Source: Clostridia bacterium
GTDB lineage: Bacteria > Bacillota > Clostridia > TANB77 > UBA1234
Direction: 5' to 3'
Assembly (NCBI GenBank): GCA_017518295.1
Contig: JAFWVJ010000012.1
Location: 338,010-402,009 of the forward strand
Length of the DNA: 64,000 nt
Shown: piece by piece, positions 2,130 to 62,790 of the stretch
How the letters are laid out: every line of letters starts with the position of its first letter
Numbering within the stretch: the first letter of the stretch is position 1
Position numbers and translations under genes: made by a program
The notes under the pieces: model-generated
What the model was told of the DNA's origin: nothing
What the model saw: the letters and a program-made list of their open reading frames with translations, nothing else
Database searches by the model: none

Positions 2130-2531
2130 TTAATAATAAACTCTTTTAATCATTTCAGCTTCATTTTGATATCCTTTTTCCTCAAGTTTTTTTATAAACA
2201 CATCCCACGGCGGTATATTACTCATATAGGGTTTTCCCGGTCCAGAATACATACCTCCGCCAGGTCCTGTATACAGACCGCCACCTGGCCCTGAATATAA
2301 TCCACCTCCAGGAGCAGTTGATAATCCACCACCTGGTCCTCTATATAAACCACCACCTGGTCCTGTGTATAGGCCTCCGCCTGGTCCTGTGTATAGACCT
2401 CCTCCCGGTCCTGTGTATAAACCACCATTAGGTCCCCTATAAGCTCCACCACTTGGTCCTGTATATAATCCGCCTCCAGGAGCAGTTGATAGTCCACCAC
2501 CTGGTCCTGTATATTTATTTCTAGGCCACAT
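2130..2531 (-). CDS. glycine-rich protein with ~10 tandem GPGGGLYTGP-type decapeptide repeats and a short globular C-terminus
   Basis: translation shows (Y/S)(T/R/S)(G/A)P(G/S/N)GG(L/A/M)Y repeated; underlying 30-nt imperfect tandem DNA repeats; no signal peptide. Confidence 0.55.
   Translation of the reverse strand: MWPRNKYTGPGGGLSTAPGGGLYTGPSGGAYRGPNGGLYTGPGGGLYTGPGGGLYTGPGGGLYRGPGGGLSTAPGGGLYSGPGGGLYTGPGGGMYSGPGKPYMSNIPPWDVFIKKLEEKGYQNEAEMIKRVYY
2222..2521. repeat. 30-bp imperfect tandem repeat array (coding, within Gly-rich protein gene)
   Basis: repeated cctggtcctgtgtata(g/a)(g/a)cc(t/a)cc(g/a/t)cc units visible in sequence. Confidence 0.7.
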
Positions 2532-9542: not shown

Positions 9543-10334
9543 TTACGATTTTCTCATCTTATTTAATATTCTAATTGGAATAATAGATAAAATTATGGGT
9601 TTAAAAATATATATTAACCCTTTTGGATATAAACCTAATAATCTAAATCCTCTTACTCTAATTAAAAACTCATTAATTCTATATTTAAAAATTTGTCTTC
9701 TTTTATAAGCATCTTTATCCAAACGCCAATTATATAAGCATTCTTCTAAATTATACATTTTTACACCTTTTGCAAACATTCTCATAAATAAATCATAATC
9801 TTCAACTCTACAACAAATTTTCTCTTCATTATAACCATTGACAATATCAAAACAATACTTTTTGGCAACAATAGCTGCATGAGTAATAGGGGAATTTTTC
9901 AAAAAATCTTCCTTGCAAATACTTGATTTTCTTATAATTCTGGAATATATACCTCTATCGTCGAACAAATTAACATTACAAGTAACTAAATCAAAATTAT
10001 TATTCTTTAAAAAGTTCAATTGTTTAGAAAGTCTATCTAAAGAACAAAAATCGTCATCGTCCATCCTAGCTATATATTTTCCACGAGAAACCTTTAAACA
10101 GCAATTTAAAGCATGTGCAAGTCCTTTATTTTCATCACTATGTAAAAATATAACATTATTTCTATTCTTACAAATATCTTTTACCCAATTAAAACAGTCA
10201 TTAGTTGAACCGTCATCATATATTATCAATTCAAAGTCTTGAAATGATTGATTAAAAATTGAACTTAGAGACTTTTTTAAATAATCTTTATTCTTTGTAT
10301 TATAAATACTCATTAAAATACTAATTTCTGGCAT
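9543..10334 (-). CDS. family 2 glycosyltransferase
   Basis: ISILMSIYNTKNKDYLKKSLSSIFNQSFQDFELIIYDDGS...MDDDD. Confidence 0.8.
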   Translation of the reverse strand: MPEISILMSIYNTKNKDYLKKSLSSIFNQSFQDFELIIYDDGSTNDCFNWVKDICKNRNNVIFLHSDENKGLAHALNCCLKVSRGKYIARMDDDDFCSLDRLSKQLNFLKNNNFDLVTCNVNLFDDRGIYSRIIRKSSICKEDFLKNSPITHAAIVAKKYCFDIVNGYNEEKICCRVEDYDLFMRMFAKGVKMYNLEECLYNWRLDKDAYKRRQIFKYRINEFLIRVRGFRLLGLYPKGLIYIFKPIILSIIPIRILNKMRKS

Positions 10335-12493: not shown

Positions 12494-12973
12494 TTACACA
12501 GCTTTTTGAGTCTGTTCTTTTTTGTTGAAAACCAGGAACTTGCTCAAAAAGTAATTGGCGACTATCACCAATACTTGCACAACCAACGTCCAAAAAACAA
12601 CCTCTTTATCGCTATTCATTCCCATTGCTGTAATAAATAGCCACATCAAAGCTGCTTCAAGGCCGAGCGTGCTAAGCCGTGCTCCAAAGAACTTAATGGC
12701 TTCTTTAACCACATTCGCACTCTTGCTCTTAAATACAAATCTACGATTCGTCACATAAGCAAAAGTGCATGCTGCAATCCACGAAAGCACAACTGCGATT
12801 TCCAGCTGAATGCCATCTTTAGCATCGAGCACCGTGAAAAGCAGGCCATACTTTACGAGGATAGATACCAAAGTGGTCAGCCCGCCAAAGATGACGTAGT
12901 TGATCACTTCCTGGTACTTCCAGTAAAGACTCCTGAGGATAATAAGCAGTTCTTCAATTCTGTGCCGTTTCAT
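12494..12973 (-). CDS. GtrA-family membrane protein (polysaccharide biosynthesis, flippase-associated)
   Basis: ~150 aa, 4 TM, VINYVIFGGLTTLVSILVKYGLLFTVL; paralog of 16132-16575. Confidence 0.7.
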   Translation of the reverse strand: MKRHRIEELLIILRSLYWKYQEVINYVIFGGLTTLVSILVKYGLLFTVLDAKDGIQLEIAVVLSWIAACTFAYVTNRRFVFKSKSANVVKEAIKFFGARLSTLGLEAALMWLFITAMGMNSDKEVVFWTLVVQVLVIVANYFLSKFLVFNKKEQTQKAV

Positions 12974-16090: not shown

Positions 16091-16136
16091 GGCGACCATT
16101 GGTCGCCGGTACCGGCGATCATAGATCGCCATTATG
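16091..16136. repeat. GC-rich palindromic intergenic repeats (REP-like, two units)
   Basis: ggcgaccattggtcgccggtaccggcgatcatagatcgccat. Confidence 0.7.
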
Positions 16137-16575
16137 ATTTGTCTTCTTTCTTAAATACAAACAATTTACTTAGCACATAGTTTCCTATCATTACTAATGC
16201 TTGTGTAACAAGCGTCCAAATAAATACTTCTATCTTACTATTCATTCCTAAGAAGTTTATAAAAAACCACATACAAAGTGCTTCAAGTCCCAATGTGGCA
16301 ACTCTACCACCCATAAACTTTGCCATTTCTTTTGCTATCTTTTCTGACTTACTTTTAAATACAAATTTTCTATTTGTAAAATAAGCAAATGTACATGCGA
16401 TAAACCAAGATAAAAATACTGCTATTTGCACATGTATTTCATTTTTTGGATCTAATATTGTAAATAGTAGCCCATACTTAACAGCCAAAGATACCATTGC
16501 TGCCAAAACTCCAGCTATTAAATAATTAACTATTTCCTCATATTTAAAATATAATTCTTTAAGTTTGTCTATCAT
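16132..16575 (-). CDS. GtrA-family membrane protein (paralog)
   Basis: IVNYLIAGVLAAMVSLAVKYGLLFTIL; 4 TM. Confidence 0.7.
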   Translation of the reverse strand: MIDKLKELYFKYEEIVNYLIAGVLAAMVSLAVKYGLLFTILDPKNEIHVQIAVFLSWFIACTFAYFTNRKFVFKSKSEKIAKEMAKFMGGRVATLGLEALCMWFFINFLGMNSKIEVFIWTLVTQALVMIGNYVLSKLFVFKKEDKS

Positions 16576-17377: not shown

Positions 17378-18079
17378 TTATTTTTTATCACTATATTCAA
17401 TAACGATATCTTCGCCCACAGAAACTCCATCCGGTGCAATCTTTACAGGCTCATCCGTTGTTACATCATTGTTCTTATTACTGATGTAGACAACATTTGT
17501 GGTGCCGATACGTTCCGTTGCAGGACCGTGGTGAACCGTAGCATCGAGCCATACCGTCAGGAAAATGATCAGAAGTGCCAGAATAATCAGGCCCCATACC
17601 GGAAGTTTGGAATCACTCTGCAACCATTTCTTGATATTTTCGCTGTTGAAACGGCTGGGCTTCTTTTCTTCCCGCTTATCTTCCTGCTTATCGGTCTTCT
17701 GTTCCATATAGATCATCCTTTCTTCAACTCTGCTTACCTTCCTATTAACAGAATCGATAAGCTCACTGTTGTTCTGAGAAAGTTTCAGGATGCGATCGAG
17801 CCGGTCATCTTCCATACGCTCAATCTGCTGGTTCTCAGGCTGCTGAACCGGAGCTTTCTGCTCAGTCATAGCTTTCGTGGCATCCGGAGCCTTCTTAGCA
17901 GGGCGACCTCTCTTGGCCGGTGCTTTCTGTTCAGTCGTAACCTTCTTGGTGGTCGAAGCTTTCCTGGTGGTGGTCTTCTTGGCAGTGGTTTTCTTGGTTG
18001 TAGTGTTCGTGGTGCCTTCCTCCTTTTTGTCCATAACCGGGTTAACAGATTCCACAGGGTTGTCAGGTGTCCTTTTCAT
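17378..18079 (-). CDS. hypothetical membrane protein with Lys/Thr-rich N-terminal tail containing an AT-hook-like KRGRPAKK segment; GC-rich codon usage
   Basis: N-terminal TTKKTTAKKTTTRK...AKRGRPAKKAP; single TM LIILALLIIFLTVWL; composition visibly GC-richer than flanks. Confidence 0.5.
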   Translation of the reverse strand: MKRTPDNPVESVNPVMDKKEEGTTNTTTKKTTAKKTTTRKASTTKKVTTEQKAPAKRGRPAKKAPDATKAMTEQKAPVQQPENQQIERMEDDRLDRILKLSQNNSELIDSVNRKVSRVEERMIYMEQKTDKQEDKREEKKPSRFNSENIKKWLQSDSKLPVWGLIILALLIIFLTVWLDATVHHGPATERIGTTNVVYISNKNNDVTTDEPVKIAPDGVSVGEDIVIEYSDKK

Positions 18080-34283: not shown

Positions 34284-34883
34284 ATGAAAAAAGGGTACTT
34301 CAAAAACGGGTTCCGGTCTATTCTAAAAATTTTCTGGTTTATTCTCAATTTTGCTGCAAACTTCATTGGCCTTGCCTTTGTGGTTTGCCCCATCATTTAT
34401 GCTTTTGCAAAGCATGTTGATGTGGAAGCAACTCTTGTATCAGTTTGGGACAAAATCGACTCCATTTCTTCGACAGGAATCCTTCCTGTAGATTATCTTT
34501 ATAGAGCTTTAAAAGAGCTGTGGATAATCATCGGGCAAATTCCTATGGGGAATTGGATCCAGATGGGCATTGTTGTAATTGTTGCAATCGAGTCGATTAG
34601 GTATTTTACAAAGCCTATTCGCACTGGATTTGCAAAGTTTACAAATTTGTTCCATAGAGAAAGTAAGGTATTCCCCAAGCTGAAGGGAACAATGTCAAAA
34701 GGAGCATCTTCTTTTGATCCTGATGCCGAAGGATACAAGAACTGGCATCCCGGTGAAAAAGGTCCCATGGACAATGTTCCTCCTGAGCTAATTGAGAAAA
34801 TCTCTCATAGCTCAGAAGAAAGTAAGCCTGATGAAGAAAAGGGTAATGTCGTGAGCATTGCATCTTTTAGAAAGAAGGCTTAA
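34284..34883 (+). CDS. hypothetical membrane protein (199 aa) with GC-rich codon usage
   Basis: 3 predicted TM; SD ggaggaaatc; composition markedly GC-richer than flanks; followed by hairpin terminator and palindromes. Confidence 0.5.
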   Translation: MKKGYFKNGFRSILKIFWFILNFAANFIGLAFVVCPIIYAFAKHVDVEATLVSVWDKIDSISSTGILPVDYLYRALKELWIIIGQIPMGNWIQMGIVVIVAIESIRYFTKPIRTGFAKFTNLFHRESKVFPKLKGTMSKGASSFDPDAEGYKNWHPGEKGPMDNVPPELIEKISHSSEESKPDEEKGNVVSIASFRKKA

Positions 34884-35962: not shown

Positions 35963-37981
35963 CTATTCTGAAATAATTTTTGTAAGCTCTTTAGAATAAA
36001 TCACATCAAGCTTATGCATTGCTCTTGTACATGCCACATAAAGTAAATCTCTATCGGATTCGCTTCTATAGTTGTCTACTTCTGCTCCAACAACAATCAC
36101 ATAGTCAAATTCCAAACCTTTTGAAAGTTGTACTGTTGTGATTTTTGCTTTTGCATTTTTCTTTTCATCAATCATGCAAACGTTAACTTTATTTTCTTTT
36201 AGCTCTTTATAAAGTTCATTTGCTTGTTTGGTGTTTTTGCAAACGATTCCGATGTTTCTATACTTCTTATCCGCTTCTTTTATAGCTTGTCTAATATAGC
36301 TACTTACATCTTCAGCCTTAGCAATTGTTACTTCTTCTCCGTGGCGAACCACAGATTCAATATTTGCTAGTTCAGGCTTAATCTTCTTACTAAATTCAAT
36401 AATTTCGTAAGTAGATCTGTAGCTTTTATTAAGCTCAATTACAGAAGCTCCATCAAAGCAACTAATAACATCACCAATAGATGTTCTAATTCCACTAATC
36501 GATTGTGCAATGTCACCCAAAATAGTCTTATTACAATCATACACAAGATTAATTAGTCCAAAGCATACAGGCGAATAATCTTGCATCTCATCGATGATAA
36601 GATGTTTGATTGGCACAATAGGTTTCTTTCCATTAAACCTTGCCTCAATATAAGCCATCGGGAAAAGATCTGCATACTCAAAGCGATTCTTACCATGGAC
36701 AAAGTATTGTTCTTTTCCTGCCCAGCTAAAGAACTCTTCATAAGTTGTAAGTGCATTCTTAAAGTTAAACATCTGATTAATTCTCTGGCGAAGCTCTCTT
36801 TTCTTTAAAACAAGTCCTTCATCAGCTCCGAGAGAAACTATATCTTCAAAGATTATATTTGCTCTTTCAGTAGGTGTATATTTTGAATACTTTAAGAACT
36901 TTTCATATAAGTAGTCTTTTGTTACTTCATAATTACCAACTTTAAACGGAATCGGATTAAAGCAACTATCAATAGAGTTATCTACAAAATGCTTAAGGTC
37001 TGTAAAGAACTCCATTGAAGATTTGTACTTTGCTCTTGCTACATACTTAGGATCATTTCCATCAATAATCTTTTCTGCTTGTTCCCAAGCAGTTTCAAAG
37101 TGGTAATTATCAGGAAGCAAATCTTCTGCAATCTGGTTTGCTTCACATTGCAAGATATTCTCTTCATCAAGTTCCGGAAGGACTCCAGAAATATACTCAG
37201 AGAAAATCTTGTTAGGCGAAATAACCAAGATTTCTTTTGAAGTAAGCTTTCCTTTATACTTATAAAGTAAGAATGCTGCTCTGTGAAGTGCAATAGAAGT
37301 TTTACCAGAACCTGCAGCTCCCTGAATAACAAGTACATTAGAAGTCACATTTCTGATAACACTATTTTGTTCTTTCTGAATAGTAGAAACAATATTGTGC
37401 ATCTTCTGATCCGAAGTCTGAGCAAGACATTCCATCAAAATGTCATCGCTAATATTCGAACCGCTATCTGCATAATAGATGATTTTATCGTCTTCAATCT
37501 TATAATGTCTTTTTAAGATGATCTCTCCAGTGATATCACAAGACGGTGCTTCATATTTAGCTTTTCCAAGTTCATATTCATAGAACATACTCGAAATAGG
37601 CGCTCTCCAGTCATAAACATAAAAGTCAAGACTGCCTTTTTCAAGTAGTGCTCCCAAGCCAATATAAACATTCGTCACTGTTTTATCTTCGTCATCTATG
37701 AAATCAATTCGTGCAAAATAAGGAGATTTTCTCATCCTTTGATATTTTGCATGATCCTTGACATACATATCCCCAGTCATTACTTGCCCTTCAATTTGTT
37801 CTTGGGCTTGCATGATTTCTACTGGGTCAAGTTCATAGATATTCTCCCAAAGCGATCTCTTATCAGAAAGAATAGATAAGCCGAACTGATCTATTTTCGC
37901 TTTTGTTTCATCAAGAAATTTGTCGATTAGCTTAATTACTTTTCGCAAATAGTTCTTTTCTTCCGAACTTGCACGAAACAT
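35963..37981 (-). CDS. UvrD/Rep-superfamily ATP-dependent DNA helicase, HelD (helicase IV)-like
   Basis: Walker A VIQGAAGSGKTSIALHRAAFLLY ~200 aa from N-terminus; long N-terminal extension typical of HelD. Confidence 0.7.
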   Translation of the reverse strand: MFRASSEEKNYLRKVIKLIDKFLDETKAKIDQFGLSILSDKRSLWENIYELDPVEIMQAQEQIEGQVMTGDMYVKDHAKYQRMRKSPYFARIDFIDDEDKTVTNVYIGLGALLEKGSLDFYVYDWRAPISSMFYEYELGKAKYEAPSCDITGEIILKRHYKIEDDKIIYYADSGSNISDDILMECLAQTSDQKMHNIVSTIQKEQNSVIRNVTSNVLVIQGAAGSGKTSIALHRAAFLLYKYKGKLTSKEILVISPNKIFSEYISGVLPELDEENILQCEANQIAEDLLPDNYHFETAWEQAEKIIDGNDPKYVARAKYKSSMEFFTDLKHFVDNSIDSCFNPIPFKVGNYEVTKDYLYEKFLKYSKYTPTERANIIFEDIVSLGADEGLVLKKRELRQRINQMFNFKNALTTYEEFFSWAGKEQYFVHGKNRFEYADLFPMAYIEARFNGKKPIVPIKHLIIDEMQDYSPVCFGLINLVYDCNKTILGDIAQSISGIRTSIGDVISCFDGASVIELNKSYRSTYEIIEFSKKIKPELANIESVVRHGEEVTIAKAEDVSSYIRQAIKEADKKYRNIGIVCKNTKQANELYKELKENKVNVCMIDEKKNAKAKITTVQLSKGLEFDYVIVVGAEVDNYRSESDRDLLYVACTRAMHKLDVIYSKELTKIISE

Positions 37982-38083
37982 CTCTATACCTCCTTTTAAA
38001 ATTATTTTGAGAAGAATATCTATAAAGCCTATTTACTCGCTTGACATATTATCATCTTTTTTACATAATTTCAAGCATTTTGT

Positions 38084-38112
38084 TGACATTACTGTAAACC
38101 TATGATATTCTT
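38084..38112 (+). promoter_or_regulatory. sigma-A-like promoter (TTGACA-17-TGaTATTCT); second candidate TTGACA...CATAAT at 38040-38068
   Basis: near-consensus -35 and extended -10 about 60 nt upstream of small peptide ORF. Confidence 0.4.
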
Positions 38113-38171
38113 TCGATGTCGAAAATATTTTTCGGCCTCGTATCAATTTTTTTGAAAGGAGGATCCACAAC

Positions 38172-38336
38172 ATGGAAAAGCGCACTTCTTCTTGCTCCGC
38201 TACCATGCGGAACGATCGCGTTGATGGCCTGAAGGCCAAAGTTTCTACTACTGGTAAAAATAAGAAGATTAAACTTTCCTACGCTGGCAAATATGGCCAG
38301 GGTTACGATGGCTGTGGTACCCACACGCACAAGTAA
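38172..38336 (+). CDS. uncalled 54-aa Cys-containing peptide (MEKRTSSCSATMRNDRVDGLKAKVSTTGKNKKIKLSYAGKYGQGYDGCGTHTHK), candidate RiPP precursor
   Basis: strong SD aaaggagga 8 nt before ATG; GC-rich codon usage identical to downstream rSAM gene; below ORF-track size cutoff. Confidence 0.45.
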   Translation: MEKRTSSCSATMRNDRVDGLKAKVSTTGKNKKIKLSYAGKYGQGYDGCGTHTHK

Positions 38337-38396
38337 TATTTTTTGAGATATATCTTGTAAGTGTCCTATAACTATGTGAAAACAAAGTTTCTACAA

Positions 38397-38432
38397 AAGA
38401 AGAATGCCTACCTAAGGCATTCTTCTTTTTAT
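38397..38432 (+). terminator. intercistronic hairpin/partial terminator between peptide gene and rSAM gene
   Basis: agaagaatgcctacctaaggcattcttct plus ttttat. Confidence 0.5.
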
Positions 38433-38471
38433 ACATCAACAGCCACATTATGTTAAGGAGGTATTATACAA

Positions 38472-39824
38472 ATGAGATCACCTTGGATGAGTAGTTCGTA
38501 CAAAAAAATGGATGGACTCAGACGTTTCCAGCGGAACATTGAAGGCCAAACCTTCACTATTCTGCTGAACGAAGAGATCGGCTCCTGGATGGTCTTCACC
38601 GAAGAAGACATCAAGCGTTACGATAACGATCAGCTCAATGAGCTGGAAATGGAATCTCTCTACCTGCGCGGCCTTGCTCTTGATGATCAGGGCGAAATGG
38701 TTGAGTTTGACTTCCCCAAGCCCGAAGAATATCCGAGCGTCGTTGTTGTCAACATCACTACTACCTGTAACCTTAGGTGCAAGTACTGCTTTGCTGACTG
38801 TGGCCCCATTAAGGGCGAGTTTATGAGCGAAGAAGTCATGCGGCTCCTTATCGAGCAGATGTTTCAGATGCCCACTCCTCTGGTCACTTTCGAGCTTCAG
38901 GGCGGAGAACCTCTTTGCTTCAAAGATGGCATCGAGAAGTTCTGTGAAATCTCTGAATCCCTCAAGGACAAGTATGGAAAGCGCGTTCAGTACCGCACTG
39001 TGACCAACTGTACTCTGATCGATGACAGGTTCATTGAACTTGCCAAGAAGTACAATATCATCACTGGCGTGAGCCTGGATGGTCCTAAGAAATGTACTGA
39101 CGAGCTTCGGATTCACGCTGATGGTACTGGCGCTTTCGATGATATCATGGCTGGTATCGCACGTCTTCGTGCTGCTGGTCTGGATGTCGATGGTGCTGTG
39201 TGTACTGTGGGACAGCATAACTGCTCTCACCCCAAGGAAGTCGTTGACTTCTTCGCAGAGCAGGGTATCAGTTTCAAGCCGCGTCCTGCAAACAAGCTCG
39301 GCCGTGAACTCACCAACAACACTACGACAAAAGATGGTGAATGGGCCGAATGCTACAAGCAGATGTATTATCGTAGCAAAGAAAAGGGTATCGAGAACTT
39401 CTCTATTCATATCTACGAAGAGAATATCTACACTCCCATTCGCGACTACATCTGCATGCGCTATCCCTGTGGTGCCGCACGAGAAGTTATCTCTGTGAAT
39501 CCCAATGGTGATGTGTTCCCCTGTGATGGTTTCAAGGGTGAAAAAGAGTTCGTTATCGGCAATCTGCTTCAGGAAACCCTGGTTGATATGCTGAATAAGG
39601 ACTGGGTTATCACCCTTAAGAACCGCACGGCCGCCAGTATCCCGCAGTGCAGCAAGTGCATGTTCCGTTCTATGTGCTGTTCCTGCTGCTACTCTGCTTA
39701 TGGCGAGTTCGGAACTATCTACCGCGAAGACCCCACCTGTGCTGATAGGCGCAAGATTTTCATGTTCCTGTTCGATGAATGGATCAGGCAGAACATTTTG
39801 GGCATCATGCCCAAGACTCCCTAA
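38472..39824 (+). CDS. radical SAM/SPASM-domain peptide-modifying enzyme with ~95-aa N-terminal (RRE-like) extension
   Basis: CNLRCKYCFAD CxxxCxxC motif at ~res 100; C-terminal Cys-rich SPASM-like CSKCMFRSMCCSCCY and CPCDGF; GC-rich codon usage. Confidence 0.8.
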   Translation: MRSPWMSSSYKKMDGLRRFQRNIEGQTFTILLNEEIGSWMVFTEEDIKRYDNDQLNELEMESLYLRGLALDDQGEMVEFDFPKPEEYPSVVVVNITTTCNLRCKYCFADCGPIKGEFMSEEVMRLLIEQMFQMPTPLVTFELQGGEPLCFKDGIEKFCEISESLKDKYGKRVQYRTVTNCTLIDDRFIELAKKYNIITGVSLDGPKKCTDELRIHADGTGAFDDIMAGIARLRAAGLDVDGAVCTVGQHNCSHPKEVVDFFAEQGISFKPRPANKLGRELTNNTTTKDGEWAECYKQMYYRSKEKGIENFSIHIYEENIYTPIRDYICMRYPCGAAREVISVNPNGDVFPCDGFKGEKEFVIGNLLQETLVDMLNKDWVITLKNRTAASIPQCSKCMFRSMCCSCCYSAYGEFGTIYREDPTCADRRKIFMFLFDEWIRQNILGIMPKTP

Positions 39825-39840
39825 ATAAGGAAAAGAAAAA

Positions 39841-39880
39841 GAGGCTGCCATAATTTATGGTAGCCTCTTATCTTTTTATG
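39841..39880 (+). terminator. rho-independent terminator after rSAM gene
   Basis: gaggctgccataatttatggtagcctc hairpin plus T-run. Confidence 0.45.
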
Positions 39881-39891
39881 GAGGTGAAAAA

Positions 39892-40512
39892 ATGGGATAC
39901 TATGCTGGTGATTTTGATAGATTCCTTGAAAGTCCTTATGCAATTATTGGACCAAGAGAATCTGGCAAAACAACTATCTTGAAAAGAGTTTTATCACTTG
40001 CTTATGAACAAGGATATACAATTGCTGTTTTTGATAGTTGCACAGATCATAAAGAAAAATCTATTTTGATACATGCTAAAGAAAATTATCCTGACGCAGT
40101 ATATATTCCATCACCAGAGAAAAAAGAAATATTAAACATGTATGCGATACCAGATTTTAAAAAAGGTTTTTATCCTACATCTATTATTGATAAAAAACAT
40201 GATAAAAGGATTTTTCTTTTTGACGTTGCAAAATATCTAGAAGAAGGTTACGACACAGAAGACTTAGAAGAAAGAGCAAGAATTCGGCTTTATTATAGAT
40301 GTCTCGTTCGTCAAGAGCTTTATGCTTTTGCATATTATATGCTAAGTAAAAAGATTCTTATAATTATGGATGAGATAGAACTTTTAGATACTATGTTTGA
40401 AATCATCAATACACTATATCATAATAATAAGCCAATATTACTTGCACTCCACAGTGAAGTTGCACTTTCTGGATTAAAACCATTCTTCGAGGTGATGCAT
40501 CTTGGAGAATAA
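39892..40512 (+). CDS. P-loop NTPase of unknown function
   Basis: Walker A GPRESGKTT; Walker B-like ILIIMDE; AT-rich codon usage. Confidence 0.5.
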   Translation: MGYYAGDFDRFLESPYAIIGPRESGKTTILKRVLSLAYEQGYTIAVFDSCTDHKEKSILIHAKENYPDAVYIPSPEKKEILNMYAIPDFKKGFYPTSIIDKKHDKRIFLFDVAKYLEEGYDTEDLEERARIRLYYRCLVRQELYAFAYYMLSKKILIIMDEIELLDTMFEIINTLYHNNKPILLALHSEVALSGLKPFFEVMHLGE

Positions 40513-41065
40513 ATCATATCCAAAACCTACTGATATGTTGTGTGGAAGTGCATGTCTATATTATCTTGCAACTCAAGTTTTTAATGTGCCATGTGATGAT
40601 TTGCCAAATGATTATATGTGGATAACTGATATTGCTTCTTATGTGATCAAGCATTTTGATAAAAGAGCAACACTATCCTGCTTTGAAAGTAATCTATATA
40701 ACGATTATAAAAAAGCAAACTTCAATATGATTCCTTGCTTTGAAGGATTCAAAAAAGTAGATGCATTTTTAAAAAGCGGAAAAGAAATCGAAGAAAAAGA
40801 AATTACAGAAAAAGAAATAGATACTCTACTCAAAAGATATAGAATAGCTCTTTTAAATGTATCGTCTGCTGTATTTAATCAAGATGCAAAGATGCGAGGC
40901 GGCCATTATATAATTATAATTGGCGAAAAAAATGATGAATATCTTATTGTAAATCCTTGCAAAACAAGTATTACTGAACTTTGGTATCCAAAAGAAATAA
41001 TATTAGATGCAGCTACTTGTTTTGGAAGCTGGATGATAACAATCTTAAACTATAAAAAGAGATAA
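40502..41065 (+). CDS. papain-like cysteine peptidase, C39-like (bacteriocin-processing-type fold), standalone
   Basis: candidate catalytic Cys in LCGSACLYY and His in GGHYIIIIG; overlaps upstream gene by 11 nt. Confidence 0.45.
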   Translation: MENKSYPKPTDMLCGSACLYYLATQVFNVPCDDLPNDYMWITDIASYVIKHFDKRATLSCFESNLYNDYKKANFNMIPCFEGFKKVDAFLKSGKEIEEKEITEKEIDTLLKRYRIALLNVSSAVFNQDAKMRGGHYIIIIGEKNDEYLIVNPCKTSITELWYPKEIILDAATCFGSWMITILNYKKR

Positions 41066-41089
41066 TCCTTTTGGGGATTATCTCTTTTT

Positions 41090-41638
41090 TTAACCTTCTA
41101 AAAATTCACATACTTTTTTAAATACATTATCTCCTCTATTAATTTTAATTGCATACATACCAGCTTTGATTGCACCATCAACATTTTCTTGATTATCATC
41201 TACAAACAAAAACTCTTCTGGTTTTAATTTATAATATTTTATTATTTCTCTATAGAAGTTTAAATGAGGTTTTACTTTATTCATTTTTGCTGAAACGAAT
41301 ATCTTATCTATATGCTTTATATCTAATGTTTCTTTAATATGTTTTTCAATATATGAAATATGATTTGTGCCAATAGCAAATATAATATCGGGATATTTTT
41401 TATTAAGTCTAGAAAATAAGTCTTTATCTTTTATCTCATATAATATATCTATTATATTTTTTGCAGTTTTTAAAGCCTTTGCAGAGTTTGGTTCTATCTT
41501 GTTAACTTGTTTTGCATATTTTTCGTCACTATAATTTTTGCCAAAGAATCTTTCTAACTTATCTTCTACATCAGTTAACTCAATATCCTTTTCTCTAACT
41601 AAAACACCACCATAATCAAAAACAATAACTTTAATCAT
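41090..41638 (-). CDS. HAD-superfamily hydrolase
   Basis: MIKVIVFDYGGVL DxD motif; SD aaaggag before ATG 41638; ORF-track N-terminal extension runs through repeat. Confidence 0.7.
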   Translation of the reverse strand: MIKVIVFDYGGVLVREKDIELTDVEDKLERFFGKNYSDEKYAKQVNKIEPNSAKALKTAKNIIDILYEIKDKDLFSRLNKKYPDIIFAIGTNHISYIEKHIKETLDIKHIDKIFVSAKMNKVKPHLNFYREIIKYYKLKPEEFLFVDDNQENVDGAIKAGMYAIKINRGDNVFKKVCEFLEG

Positions 41639-41650
41639 ATCTGCTCCTTT

Positions 41651-41702
41651 TGTACCGGCGGTCATCGACTGCCATGAGACTTGGGGACGTTCCCCAAGTC
41701 TC
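41651..41702. repeat. REP-like unit fused to 27-bp perfect palindrome
   Basis: gtaccggcggtcatcgactgccat + gagacttggggacgttccccaagtctc. Confidence 0.7.
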
Positions 41703-43071
41703 ATTTTGAAATTGCAACTTCGATTGCTTCTCTTATAGTTCTAACGCCTGTTACTTTAATATTAGGTTTATACTTGATTTGTTTTAAAGCACTTTGTGGA
41801 ACTATAATTTCTTCAAATCCCATTCTCTCAGCTTCTTTAACTCTTTTTTCTAATTGACTAACCGATCTTATTTCGCCAGTTAATCCGACTTCTCCGACAG
41901 CAACCAAATTTTTACTAATCGGCATATTTTTATAGCTTGATGCAAGCGAAAGAGCAATAGCTAAATCTGCAGCAGGTTCATCTAATTTAATACCTGATAC
42001 TACATTTACATATGCATCTTGATTGCTAAGAGGTAAGTTTGCTCTTTTTTCTAAAACAGCAAGTAATAAAACTAATCTATTAAATTCAACTCCTATTCCT
42101 GTTCTACGAGCCATACCATAAGCAGTAGGAGTAACTAATGCTTGAACTTCAATTAGCATAGTACGAGTGCCTTCTAAAGTTGCGACTATTACAGATCCTG
42201 AAGGATTACCAGCACGATCAGATATCATTATATCCGAAGGATCACTTATCTCGCACATACCTTCTTCACGCATTTCAAAAATTCCAACTTCATTTGTTGA
42301 ACCAAATCTATTTTTTGCTCCTCTTAAAACTCTATAAGAGAAAAATCTTTCACCTTCAATATATAAAACAGCATCAACCATATGTTCCAAAACTCTAGGG
42401 CCAGCAATACTACCGTCTTTTGTAACGTGACCAATTATGATTGTAGTGATGTTTTGCTTTTTGCAAGTCATCATTATTTTGGCAGTTACTTCTCTTACTT
42501 GTGAAACACTTCCAGGAGCTGCTGGAATATCATCACTATAGATTGTTTGAATTGAGTCGATGATTACTAAACCAGGCTTAATATTTTCAATCGCTTCATC
42601 TATAAGACTCATCGACGTTTCACCTAAGAAGAAAATACTATCATTATCAATGTTCAATCTATCGGCACGCATTTTTATTTGTGAGCCAGATTCTTCTCCT
42701 GATACATATAAAATAGGACCATTAACTTTGACTTTATCGCAAATTTGCAAAATTAAAGTAGACTTACCAATACCAGGTTCACCGCCTAATAGAACAAGCG
42801 AACCTTGTACCAAACCACCGCCTAAAACTCTATCTAATTCATCATAACCAGTTTTGTATCTTTCATAATTATTTGTTTCTACATCTTTAAGCTTAAGTAT
42901 ATTTGCTTTAGTCGCAGTAGTTCTTGCTCCTAGACCAGAGGTTACTTTTGAATCTGCTACCTTTTGTTCAAAAAATGAATTCCACTCTCCACACGCTGGA
43001 CACTTACCTAGCCACTTAGTGCTTTCATTTCCACAATTATTACATACAAAAATTACCTTACTTTTAGCCAT
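41701..43071 (-). CDS. radA: DNA repair protein RadA/Sms
   Basis: zinc finger CNNCGNESTKWLGKCPACGEW; Walker A GEPGIGKSTL; KNRFG motif; Lon-like C-terminus. Confidence 0.9.
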   Translation of the reverse strand: MAKSKVIFVCNNCGNESTKWLGKCPACGEWNSFFEQKVADSKVTSGLGARTTATKANILKLKDVETNNYERYKTGYDELDRVLGGGLVQGSLVLLGGEPGIGKSTLILQICDKVKVNGPILYVSGEESGSQIKMRADRLNIDNDSIFFLGETSMSLIDEAIENIKPGLVIIDSIQTIYSDDIPAAPGSVSQVREVTAKIMMTCKKQNITTIIIGHVTKDGSIAGPRVLEHMVDAVLYIEGERFFSYRVLRGAKNRFGSTNEVGIFEMREEGMCEISDPSDIMISDRAGNPSGSVIVATLEGTRTMLIEVQALVTPTAYGMARRTGIGVEFNRLVLLLAVLEKRANLPLSNQDAYVNVVSGIKLDEPAADLAIALSLASSYKNMPISKNLVAVGEVGLTGEIRSVSQLEKRVKEAERMGFEEIIVPQSALKQIKYKPNIKVTGVRTIREAIEVAISK

Positions 43072-57053: not shown

Positions 57054-57860
57054 TTACTCGGCCGGAACAAAATATTTGGTCCGAACCCATCCATAGACTT
57101 GCTGACCATTTTCTTTGACGTACAGCACATAGGCAAATTCGCCATCATTTTGGATTACTGTGACAATGTCTCCAGAATGTATGATAGCAAGTTTTTTGGT
57201 CTCAAGATCAGGTTGCTCTCGAATACCTACAGATACCCCATCGTGGTCATACATAACCATCCACCTAGTTCCATAGGTTCCAGGAGAAGTTATATAGCCA
57301 TTACCACCTTCAAACCTGAAATTTTCGCCAAACTGTACCGCACCGTTATAGTCGTACATGCCTACATCAACTTTTTTGACGAAACAGGTGCCAGGGATAC
57401 GTTTCTCGGTATTAAGCTGACATACAAGCCATTCGTTTGTCTCATAGATAACAAACAATGTCTCTCCAGCACTTACCTTTTGACCATTTGTATGCCCTGA
57501 CCATGGATCAGTGTAGACATTCAGGCTTCCACTTGCTATTTGGATTCTGTAGCCATTAAGCACACAAAATGATTTAAGTACATAACCTGTTTGAGGTTCT
57601 GCACTCAATCCACTTTGATAGCAGTCAACTACATACCAATCATAGTATTCACCAGTAATGTAAAGTTCATCCATGTTATTACACTTGTAGAGCCTAGTAG
57701 AACGAGTATCGGGCTGTTCACGAACGCTTACTGTGGTGGAAATGACTGTTGCAGTACCATACCACTGAGTATAAGCATCCGAAAGAGTAGAGTTAATAGG
57801 GAAAAGAACCAAAAGCATGCTTAACAGGATATACGAGATGTACCGTTTCATTTTTTTCAC
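57054..57860 (-). CDS. secreted hypothetical protein (signal peptide; Trp/Tyr/Gly-rich, SH3b-like repeats possible); GC-rich codon usage
   Basis: signal peptide MKKMKRYISYILLSMLLVLFPINSTLSDA; composition GC-richer than flanks. Confidence 0.5.
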   Translation of the reverse strand: MKKMKRYISYILLSMLLVLFPINSTLSDAYTQWYGTATVISTTVSVREQPDTRSTRLYKCNNMDELYITGEYYDWYVVDCYQSGLSAEPQTGYVLKSFCVLNGYRIQIASGSLNVYTDPWSGHTNGQKVSAGETLFVIYETNEWLVCQLNTEKRIPGTCFVKKVDVGMYDYNGAVQFGENFRFEGGNGYITSPGTYGTRWMVMYDHDGVSVGIREQPDLETKKLAIIHSGDIVTVIQNDGEFAYVLYVKENGQQVYGWVRTKYFVPAE

Positions 57861-61591: not shown

Positions 61592-62014
61592 TCAGTATGT
61601 ATAGAATTTATTCGGATCCGTTTTTTTGGAAATGGTATTCTTCATGGTAGCAATAAATGTCTCCCAAAAACCCGTTTCGACATCAACTCCTGCCTGCCTA
61701 AGTTCTTCAATGCAGCGAATGAGCTTTCCATAAGGATTCATTCTCATTCCAAGTACATTTAACCTAAGCCGTTGCATCAAAGCAGGTGCCCTTTCCCCTT
61801 CAACGCTATAAATGGCGTTTTCAAGCTTTTTGATCATTTCATCTTCAGCTTCTAGGTTAGCTAGCTTTTTGTCGGCCATTTTACCGGCTCGAACTACATT
61901 TTTGTCCTCTTTTAACATTGAAACAGTTCGATCCTCTCTCCAATATCCATAGGTTCTTGAATTTAGCCGGACTTCCATGCTCAACCTCCTTATCCTTTTA
62001 TCTGTTTTATCCAA
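61592..62014 (-). CDS. hypothetical small protein (140 aa)
   Basis: ORF in 5-gene cluster; overlaps next gene by ~25 nt. Confidence 0.4.
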   Translation of the reverse strand: MDKTDKRIRRLSMEVRLNSRTYGYWREDRTVSMLKEDKNVVRAGKMADKKLANLEAEDEMIKKLENAIYSVEGERAPALMQRLRLNVLGMRMNPYGKLIRCIEELRQAGVDVETGFWETFIATMKNTISKKTDPNKFYTY

Positions 62015-62433
62015 TCATTTATAGCATAAGCTACAGATGTAATGGATTCATCAGAACCTTTGACCATCTCTTCGATTGTCTTTGCAGTGTTTTCATCACC
62101 ATTACGCCTAAACACATCAAGCATATTGTAAAGATACTGAAGCCTAAAGATATGGAAGATTCCATCGGGACTTGAAACCTTGATTTCCCAGTCACGGCCG
62201 CCCCACCAGTTATCATGGTACTTAAAAACACCATCAATGGTAAGAACACCGTATCCAGAATACTCGGTTTCGACCCTCTCATAAACTTCGATTTCTTTGG
62301 TACCAATGCCAAATGAATTTGCATATTTTTTAGCAATCAGTTCATAGGCATTTTGCGCTTCTTTAGCAATCCGCTGAAAATCATTGAGCATCAAAAGATC
62401 ATTTACAGAGAGGTTCATAATAATGCTATCCAT
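61990..62433 (-). CDS. hypothetical small protein (147 aa)
   Basis: ORF in 5-gene cluster; abuts upstream gene. Confidence 0.4.
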   Translation of the reverse strand: MDSIIMNLSVNDLLMLNDFQRIAKEAQNAYELIAKKYANSFGIGTKEIEVYERVETEYSGYGVLTIDGVFKYHDNWWGGRDWEIKVSSPDGIFHIFRLQYLYNMLDVFRRNGDENTAKTIEEMVKGSDESITSVAYAINDWIKQIKG

Positions 62434-62790
62434 TTAATATGCCTCCGTTTTCGAATTGTTGTTGTAAAGAACCTCTGGTTTAACACCATAACCACAACTT
62501 ACAGAAACACGCTCACGGTTAAAGTTCATAATAACTTTCCACGGGAAAGCTCTGGGACTAATCCCACAAGATTTTGCTATGTCAGTAAGAAAAGCACAAG
62601 GATAAGTATCGGTAGTAATAGAGAAATAGGGGCATCTTGAAGTCTCCTTCTCGATTGCCTGGGCCAAACTCGTTTCGAACAGGTCGATATTACAGATTCC
62701 GCAATGGAGATTGCGAAGTCCATCGGCCCACCATTTTGCGGCAACCTTAATGTACTCTTTCACCTTGAAAATCCCCTCCATATGAAGCAT
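62434..62790 (-). CDS. hypothetical Cys-containing small protein (118 aa)
   Basis: first gene of 5-gene cluster; CGICN...CPYF...CAF...CGYG cysteines. Confidence 0.4.
   Translation of the reverse strand: MLHMEGIFKVKEYIKVAAKWWADGLRNLHCGICNIDLFETSLAQAIEKETSRCPYFSITTDTYPCAFLTDIAKSCGISPRAFPWKVIMNFNRERVSVSCGYGVKPEVLYNNNSKTEAY

Follow-up and report, generated by a model that had tools for sequence, protein, structure and literature searches.

A horizontally mobile six-gene cassette around a precursor peptide and a radical SAM/SPASM maturase includes a HelD-class RNA-polymerase motor

The DNA analysed here (the window) is a 64,000-nucleotide stretch from a Clostridia bacterium (GenBank assembly GCA_017518295.1, contig JAFWVJ010000012.1, positions 338,010 to 402,009 of the forward strand), with a G+C content of ~30%. 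An initial annotation, made from the letters alone, had singled out positions 38040–41065 as a peptide gene and a radical S-adenosylmethionine (SAM) enzyme gene, imported together and recently, beside genes for a P-loop protein and a C39-like peptidase. The peptide open reading frame (ORF) and the radical SAM gene are real and sit in the middle of a conserved six-gene cassette that is horizontally mobile and consists of a HelD-class motor, the precursor peptide, a radical SAM/SPASM maturase, a small ATPase of the ASCE (additional strand, catalytic E) type, a C39-like peptidase and a HAD hydrolase. The annotated extent was therefore too narrow, as it left out the HelD gene at one end and the HAD gene at the other. 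The features are as follows.

35963–37981, minus strand: HelD-class RNA-polymerase recycling motor, 672 aa, divergent from the peptide gene
38041–38111, plus strand: two tandem sigma-70-like promoter sites of the peptide gene, recognised by consensus match alone
38172–38336, plus strand: precursor peptide, 54 aa, Shine–Dalgarno sequence AGGAGG at 38157–38162, supported by homologues and alignment
38208–38234, plus strand: conserved leader box RNDRVDGLK of the peptide (family form [RK]ND[RI]V..LK)
38301–38330, plus strand: core GYDGCGTHTH of the peptide (family consensus G[YF]DGCGxHxH)
38395–38435, plus strand: hairpin of 15 bp (stem 38395–38429) and U-tract in the precursor–maturase spacer, an attenuator or terminator
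38472–39824, plus strand: radical SAM/SPASM peptide maturase, 450 aa, assigned by Pfam, motifs and structure model
39839–39878, plus strand: strong hairpin terminator, found by folding, that abuts the P-loop gene's ribosome-binding site
39892–40512, plus strand: small ASCE-type P-loop ATPase, 206 aa, with GPRESGKTT and further motifs
40502–41065, plus strand: free-standing C39-like cysteine peptidase (187 aa), which starts at TTG and shares 11 nt with the ATPase gene
41090–41704, minus strand: 204-aa hydrolase of the HAD-IA family, its gene convergent with that of the peptidase

The 54-aa ORF with its two cysteines, unlisted among the predicted reading frames, is present and conserved as a gene, and its near-perfect Shine–Dalgarno sequence lies 9 nt ahead of the ATG, as the initial annotation had it. 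We found 27 homologues of the peptide in a collection of 5.8 billion proteins. A profile search of 1.84 billion representatives yielded a small family of 38 clusters at 50% identity; a 948-aa repeat protein (P0178) in the same search was a false positive. Scans returned 29 loci from species-representative genomes and 39 from metagenomes. Family members are 44–80 aa long, with one conserved Cys and a single HxH. In the alignment, N14, D15, V17, G19 and L20 of the leader box are invariant or nearly so, and Bacilli-type peptides keep the box as KNDIVKNLK. The 30-nt core exists in 29 nucleotide versions across 34 loci, all but one of which encode the same ten residues. The sole exception is a single Thr-to-Ser change, and every codon position uses several synonymous codons. 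Across the family, the positions between and before the two His residues vary (T/S/G and T/S/C/N/V), and the tail beyond the second His is freely variable. The synonymous variation of the core is the mark of selection on the protein sequence, and the precursor is under strong purifying selection. A chance ORF is ruled out by the homologues together with this synonymous conservation. No Pfam or NCBIfam model matched the peptide, in keeping with the annotated lack of resemblance to SCIFF, mycofactocin or PqqA-type precursors, and there is no Gly-Gly leader motif. We presume that the maturase recognises the leader box and modifies the core G[YF]DGCGxHxH.

The maturase belongs to the radical SAM superfamily (PF04055, 62.6 bits against a cutoff of 29.5) and to its SPASM subgroup (PF13186, 37 bits against 21.5). 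The cluster motif CX3CX2C occupies residues 99–106 (C99, C103, C106), with ~95 aa ahead of the core, and the seven-cysteine SPASM motif is complete (C333X13GX4C351, C393X2C396X5C402X3C406 and C423; cysteines within residues 328–423), which bears out the annotated 450-aa enzyme with a Cys-rich SPASM region. Its strong NCBIfam matches are exclusively peptide-maturase or anaerobic sulfatase-maturating enzyme (anSME) models, all far below their cutoffs. HxsB (TIGR03978) is the best and matches over the full length (180.9 bits, cutoff 370), followed by DynA (164, cutoff 450), PapB (NF047865; 155, cutoff 340), anSME (148.7, cutoff 349) and the SCIFF maturase (TIGR03974; 114.5, cutoff 425). With these scores below the cutoffs, and one conserved Cys in the peptide family where a six-Cys or CX3D-repeat precursor would be expected, membership of the sactipeptide, ranthipeptide or SCIFF systems, to which the initial annotation likened the layout, is not supported. 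Neither does the enzyme belong with mycofactocin or PQQ maturases: MftC and PqqE models are absent from its 25 best NCBIfam matches, and the peptide core is G[YF]DGCGxHxH, whereas precursors of those systems end in GVY or carry E-x3-Y. An anSME lacking a peptide partner, which the initial annotation had named among the outcomes that would overturn it, is contradicted both by the anSME score and by the peptide gene that adjoins the maturase gene in 52 of 65 loci.

Among solved structures, the SCIFF maturase CteB comes closest, both by sequence (E = 7.8e-30) and by fold (Foldseek E = 1e-22); next in the fold search are anSME, ChlB, SuiB, SkfB and TigE. The sequence alignment with CteB begins at residue 49, while the best fold match, over 464 alignment columns, extends over the N-terminal domain too. 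In the AF2 model (pLDDT 82), the first ~70 residues form three or four strands followed by two helices. The domain itself (residues ~10–71, beta-beta-beta-alpha-alpha; strands 17–23, 26–33 and 38–43, helices 44–51 and 57–65) is modelled at a pLDDT of ~90, and its strand–helix order is, in this model, the layout of the peptide-binding domains of such maturases. The annotated ~95-aa extension, placed like a recognition element of ribosomally made peptides that are modified post-translationally (RiPPs), thus stands as a CteB-like domain layout but not as a profile match. A RiPP recognition element is a winged-helix fold of a three-stranded sheet plus helices. No PqqD/RiPP recognition element profile matches the N-terminus by sequence, and we therefore put this assignment no higher than likely.

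A census built from context look-ups and tblastn of all fetched loci comprised 65 distinct peptide loci. The maturase gene adjoins the peptide gene in 52, and most of the remainder are contig ends; precursor and maturase are thus a genuine unit, as annotated. The core of maturase, ATPase and peptidase is wholly visible in 38 loci, of which 34 also carry HelD and 31 carry HAD. The ATPase and peptidase genes, regarded earlier as possibly coincidental neighbours, are core members of every complete locus and are fused in the oral-metagenome type. Five arrangements recur.

Clostridia type (window, L012, L082): HelD divergent upstream, then peptide–maturase–ATPase–peptidase, with HAD convergent
Bacilli/Mycoplasmatota-labelled gut metagenome-assembled genomes (MAGs; more than 20 loci, for example L009): peptide–maturase–ATPase–HelD–peptidase–HAD, co-directional, with overlapping stops and starts
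HelD-last type (L068, L070, L074): peptide–maturase–ATPase–peptidase–HelD
Human oral type (L040–L042): peptide–HelD–maturase–Aminotran_5–NTP_transf_5–dTMP kinase/leucine-rich repeat (LRR)–CYTH–ATPase fused to peptidase
CPR (candidate phyla radiation)-like type, no HelD (L033, L037, L071, L079): peptide, ATPase, HAD, peptidase and maturase

Near the oral type, L014 has the order peptide–maturase–ATPase–HelD–Aminotran_5–NTP_transf_5, then a dTMP-kinase/LRR gene fused to the peptidase domain. HelD thus occupies four positions (divergent upstream, between ATPase and peptidase, between peptide and maturase, or last), and the flanking genes are non-syntenic among loci. Its adjacency as inherited synteny was rejected on these grounds, given four gene orders and unrelated flanks. 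Pairwise identities co-vary between maturase and HelD (r = 0.91) and between HelD and ATPase (r = 0.95), which indicates that the cassette genes travel together. Stop and start codons overlap in L009.

Several loci hold parts of the cassette. Two (L028, 9992–10738; L057, 3577–4314) retain the peptide with HAD directly after it and have no run of Ns; the other four genes (maturase, ATPase, HelD and peptidase) are missing. In L061 (8992–9126), L077 and L078 (3690–3830) only the peptide gene is present, once beside a large putative transposase ORF. These orphan peptide genes look like decayed cassettes. A phage or plasmid origin was rejected: all maturase matches in phage and plasmid collections were below 30% identity, and a viral-contig scan gave no relatives of the peptide.

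The HelD gene product scores 465 bits against HelD_BACSU (NF041464; cutoff 419) and is accordingly a class I, B. subtilis-type HelD. It aligns with B. subtilis HelD in its RNA-polymerase complex (6WVK) at E = 5e-104 over residues 8–362 and 429–669, an alignment that takes in the N-terminal arm. The cassette protein is ~100 aa shorter than B. subtilis HelD, mostly opposite residues 380–510, and the Walker A/B and helicase motifs are invariant across 18 cassette HelDs. It is thus intact and co-inherited with the rest of the cassette, and from its sequence it is predicted to bind RNA polymerase. B. subtilis HelD is reported to protect RNA polymerase from rifampicin through its N-terminal arm (PMC12802891), and an equal protective role is reported for actinobacterial HelR (bioRxiv 10.1101/2021.05.10.443488). 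Many bacteria have several expressed HelD paralogues, for reasons that have been called unclear (PMC8655204).

The ATPase carries Walker A GKTT, DS(A/C)T(E/D)H, FD.S.YLE.G, Walker B MDEIE and His187. It gave a generic AAA_14 match and no specific Pfam or NCBIfam family, and its fold is of the RecA/FtsK-HerA-like ASCE kind. As for the peptidase, 17 of 22 family members match PF03412 (Peptidase_C39; best 2.5e-11), and the window protein itself matches the related Guanylate_cyc_2 alone (E = 0.0045). In the family alignment C14 and H135 never vary and N151 hardly does, which upholds the annotated C39-like call at the family level. The sequences thus place this presumed peptidase in the C39 family and tie it to the ATPase, with which it forms a single 389-aa protein in L040 (13291–14449). 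In L014 (7554–9650), a 698-aa protein joins a dTMP-kinase-like/LRR region to the peptidase. The L040 and L014 lineages add a class-V (NifS-like) aminotransferase and NTP_transf_5, and L040 also CYTH. The HAD protein is a HAD-IA family member (TIGR01509, 43.4 against a cutoff of 29.4). The nucleophile Asp, the Thr, the Lys and the DD motif are kept, and the Asp+2 acid/base position is Gly or Val in the window and 21 orthologues. With this replacement, the substrate may be one that has a good leaving group, or the chemistry may be unlike that of a classical phosphatase.

The peptide and maturase genes differ in codon usage from all their neighbours. G+C at third codon positions (GC3) is 0.51 in the peptide gene and 0.59 in the maturase gene, against 0.17–0.28 in every neighbouring gene, and the composition break coincides exactly with the borders of the pair. 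Relative to native genes, third-position A falls from 0.40 to 0.11, C rises from 0.09 to 0.36 and G from 0.09 to 0.23, with T near native; TTA, CTA and CCA codons are absent. The annotated anomaly is therefore real, but it is a depletion of third-position A rather than plain GC-richness. The missing TTA and CTA codons (with one TCA) also account for a 457-aa antisense ORF at 38478–39851 (minus strand) that covers the entire maturase gene. We rejected this ORF as a gene, as its frame is broken in L011 (251 codons).

The same bias (third-position A 0.05–0.13) marks three orthologous pairs (window 38172–39824; L011 10001–11627; L012 10001–11624), and the ATPase, peptidase and HelD genes of L011 and L012 are native in composition. 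At 83–87%, the three maturase proteins are somewhat closer to one another than the Bacilli-type trend would predict from their HelDs (50–63%). Third-position identity among the three maturase genes is 45–54%, near saturation. Since diverged orthologues carry the same bias, the claim that the pair was acquired together and recently survives in its first half, which is reasonable, and not in its second; simple recent transfer is likewise not supported as the cause of the anomaly. Translational selection is an unlikely cause, as a native ribosomal-protein-like gene is rich in third-position A. Both repeated replacement of the peptide and maturase genes alone, from donors poor in third-position A, and selection on their codons would fit.

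The same evidence bears on the account offered at the outset, in which a two-gene sactipeptide or ranthipeptide pair was imported recently and is a chance neighbour of native genes. The composition break at the borders of the pair, and CteB and PapB among the closest relatives, speak for it. We nonetheless hold it to be very improbable: the neighbours are conserved in every lineage and co-diverge with the maturase, so that the locus census contradicts it; the anomaly is common to diverged orthologues; and the SCIFF and PapB thresholds are not reached.

Elsewhere in the window, most genes have a GC3 of 0.15–0.2, and raised values (0.36–0.52) also occur at 12494–12973, 17378–18079, 34284–34883, 57054–57860 and 61592–62790, which suggests a patchwork of imported genes. 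The N-terminal sequence encoded at 12494–12973 resembles that of an ORF of native composition at 16132–16575. At 2130–2531 (minus strand; GC 0.46, GC3 0.18) there is a 133-aa glycine-rich repeat ORF (GGGL.T.PGGG...). It is upstream of a 451-aa gene, after which comes an ORF of ~110 aa.

The two best sigma-70-like sites of the region lie directly upstream of the peptide gene, in line with the near-consensus promoter annotated there: candidates at 38041–38069 (plus strand; 11/12 matches) and 38083–38111 (plus strand; 10/12 matches and an extended TG). The AT-rich region as a whole holds nine promoter-like sites against 10.4 in shuffles, that is, no excess. The peptide-facing site at 38041–38069 overlaps, back to back, a HelD-facing site at 38074–38046 (minus strand), and polymerase on one of them could exclude the other. 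A convergent-promoter rifampicin alarm, as described for B. subtilis helD (PMC12802891), was set aside as a model, the sites of the window being divergent and overlapping instead.

The hairpin after the peptide gene is present as annotated but is not weak, with its 15-bp stem, U-tract and a spacer folding z of −3.3. A hairpin between the peptide and maturase genes occurs in all six Clostridia-type loci (6/6), where the annotated precursor–hairpin–maturase layout was found again. One between the maturase and ATPase genes occurs in all seven (window 39839–39891, L003, L004, L011, L012, L013 and L082). As the hairpin sequences differ and the structures persist, stepwise attenuation along the Clostridia-type operon is suggested. 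The second, terminator-like hairpin stops ~13 nt short of the ATPase ribosome-binding site, and expression of the ATPase and peptidase genes past it may depend on read-through or on an internal promoter. In Bacilli-type loci the peptide–maturase spacer is instead short and contains a conserved CCUAUGUUGUGUA, which is able to base-pair with GGAGG downstream, in the maturase Shine–Dalgarno sequence (L009 6959–7000; spacers of L015, L018, L027 and L036). This element is a candidate Shine–Dalgarno-sequestering hairpin that would lower translation of the maturase relative to the precursor. In L028 (~10160–10195), CCUAUGUUGUGUA stands ahead of the HAD gene rather than the maturase gene. Rfam identified no riboswitch or leader RNA in 37500–41500.

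Taken as a whole, the locus is very probably a peptide-maturation cassette of the composition described. Our preferred reading, to which we give a probability of roughly 0.55, goes further: the cassette would be mobile and of RiPP type, its product acting on RNA polymerase and its HelD protecting the producer. Its RNA-polymerase and HelD-protection logic, judged as a separate element, we hold at somewhat less than even odds. A still more tentative version sees a new class of ribosomal peptide in uncultured gut and rumen Firmicutes and Mycoplasmatota, namely a ~10-residue, radical SAM cross-linked RNA-polymerase ligand with a HelD-guarded producer. Here the product would possibly carry phospho- or nucleotide-derived tailoring, and HelD would be a dedicated, operon-borne paralogue.

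In the pathway that we propose, the precursor would be transcribed from strong promoters, and the hairpins after the peptide and maturase genes would reduce expression stepwise. The CteB-like N-terminal domain of the maturase would bind the leader box, and the enzyme would then add one or two radical cross-links to G[YF]DGCGxHxH, with an expected loss of 2 or 4 Da. By analogy with three-residue-ring RiPPs and with PapB, a His-x-His ring of three residues is most likely, and/or a link that starts from the single Cys, in the D-G-C segment. The C39-like peptidase, together with the ATPase, would cut off the leader, perhaps behind G-x-G and ahead of Y45. The HAD protein may carry out one more step, either phospho- or nucleotide-related tailoring or detoxification; two lineages would have NTP_transf_5 and dTMP-kinase-LRR genes in its stead, one of them CYTH as well. 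An ADP-ribosylated triceptide offers a precedent for nucleotide-derived tailoring (PMC12912966). The product would then act on RNA polymerase, and the cassette HelD would clear or protect the polymerase of the producer, much as HelD and HelR act against rifamycins. This last step is proposed because of the tight HelD linkage and published HelD/HelR biology (PMC12802891; bioRxiv 10.1101/2021.05.10.443488; PMC8655204).

Several observations weigh against this reading. The four complete CPR-type cassettes without HelD, all of which carry HAD, imply that the product does not need HelD, and the cassette HelD may be an extra paralogue or the sole HelD of the genome. No conserved exporter or classical immunity gene was found among the loci, which is unusual for a secreted antibiotic, and the near-invariance of the core across several phylum-level labels is more like a cofactor precursor than a bacteriocin. 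The fold of the ATPase is generic, and residues 1–95 of the maturase have no Pfam match to PqqD or a RiPP recognition element even at E = 10. Furthermore, all loci come from MAGs or metagenomes, and the cassette is known from its genes alone.

Part of this evidence would suit an antiphage or conflict system, with a radical SAM-matured intracellular effector, as HxsA is, and with HelD, ATPase and peptidase as sensor or effector at RNA polymerase. HXS is a proven antiphage system with such an effector (PMC13128918), and HxsB is the best NCBIfam model of the maturase, end to end; both systems also have a gene-encoded substrate with His-x-small-residue motifs. The cassette is sporadic, mobile and decaying to orphan peptide genes, with no conserved exporter, and its extended variants bear kinase-like genes as well as LRR, CYTH and nucleotidyltransferase genes. 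Defence systems often include UvrD-like helicases, ATPases and proteases. The HxsB score is, however, 181 against 370, and the cassette has no HxsC, HxsD or HxS-repeat protein. HXS uses two radical SAM enzymes and HxsD, whereas our loci have one radical SAM enzyme and no HxsD in any. The HXS substrate is a periplasmic peptidoglycan-binding protein with five HxS repeats, whereas here it is a cytosolic peptide of 44–80 aa with a single HxH. The hosts are Proteobacteria in the one case and Firmicutes and Mycoplasmatota in the other. PADLOC 2.0 returned generic matches alone, to pVip-core (radical SAM) and GajB/UvrD, and matched neither peptide nor peptidase; the helicase is a bona fide HelD, unlike GajB. 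The flanks in the window are housekeeping genes (CarD, RadA) with no defence island, and phage, plasmid and viral contigs yielded no relatives. On balance we consider a defence role unlikely.

Less probable again is an intracellular cofactor or small-regulator precursor, comparable to those of PQQ or mycofactocin, that would serve or tune HelD and RNA polymerase, or some other enzyme, and is no weapon. The near-invariant core in distant lineages and the want of a conserved exporter would suit it, as would the gene layout, since mycofactocin and PQQ systems combine a radical SAM/SPASM enzyme, an N-terminal peptide-binding-type domain and a peptidase. Against it stand the sporadic distribution of a tiny family (38 clusters), en-bloc losses that leave orphan peptide genes, mobile and non-syntenic flanks, the lack of a conserved redox partner enzyme, and the position of MftC and PqqE outside the top NCBIfam matches.

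Our preferred reading, a HelD-guarded RiPP pathway, can also be set against described systems. CteB/SCIFF and PapB share with it a short precursor gene and, after this, a maturase that combines a peptide-binding-type domain at the N-terminus, a radical SAM domain and a SPASM domain with two auxiliary clusters. Their cutoffs (425 and 340) lie far above the cassette scores, the SCIFF precursor has six cysteines against one conserved Cys here, and those systems have no ATPase, C39-like peptidase, HAD or HelD partners. Triceptides, darobactin and dynobactin resemble the cassette in that DynA is the second-best model (164 bits) and in the pattern of invariant His, variable residue and invariant His, which matches the aromatic-X-X ring logic of three-residue cross-link RiPPs. 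They differ in gene set, and their cutoffs are not reached by a cassette known only as genes. With HelD/HelR rifamycin protection the cassette shares a HelD that passes HelD_BACSU and keeps the arm to which protection is ascribed in B. subtilis (PMC12802891); known helD and helR genes, however, are stand-alone and answer an external antibiotic, whereas here HelD lies inside a peptide-maturation operon. Peptidase-containing ABC transporters (PCATs) likewise couple a C39-type leader peptidase to a P-loop ATPase, here genetically and in one lineage physically, but the cassette has no membrane domain, ABC nucleotide-binding domain or Gly-Gly leader and is not a PCAT.

In full-text searches of the literature, neither the core motif nor a pairing of HelD with radical SAM or of SPASM with UvrD gave a relevant result, and the cassette is apparently undescribed in the curated model libraries and literature searched. 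Radical SAM peptide pathways as such are well known; what is unusual in this one, otherwise of the radical SAM-RiPP kind, is its link to HelD and a soluble C39 peptidase coupled to an ATPase. If HelD is indeed a self-protection device, the product would be a new natural ligand of RNA polymerase, a validated antibiotic target, and the linkage would offer a resistance-guided route to more such ligands. It would also be the first RiPP pathway with a target-clearing HelD immunity, and would account for one group of the additional HelD copies, the reasons for which have been called unclear (PMC8655204). Should it prove to be a defence system instead, the cassette would provide a second radical SAM-matured, gene-encoded effector after HXS, acting intracellularly. 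Either way, the near-invariant G[YF]DGCGxHxH core is a directly testable substrate for new radical SAM chemistry.

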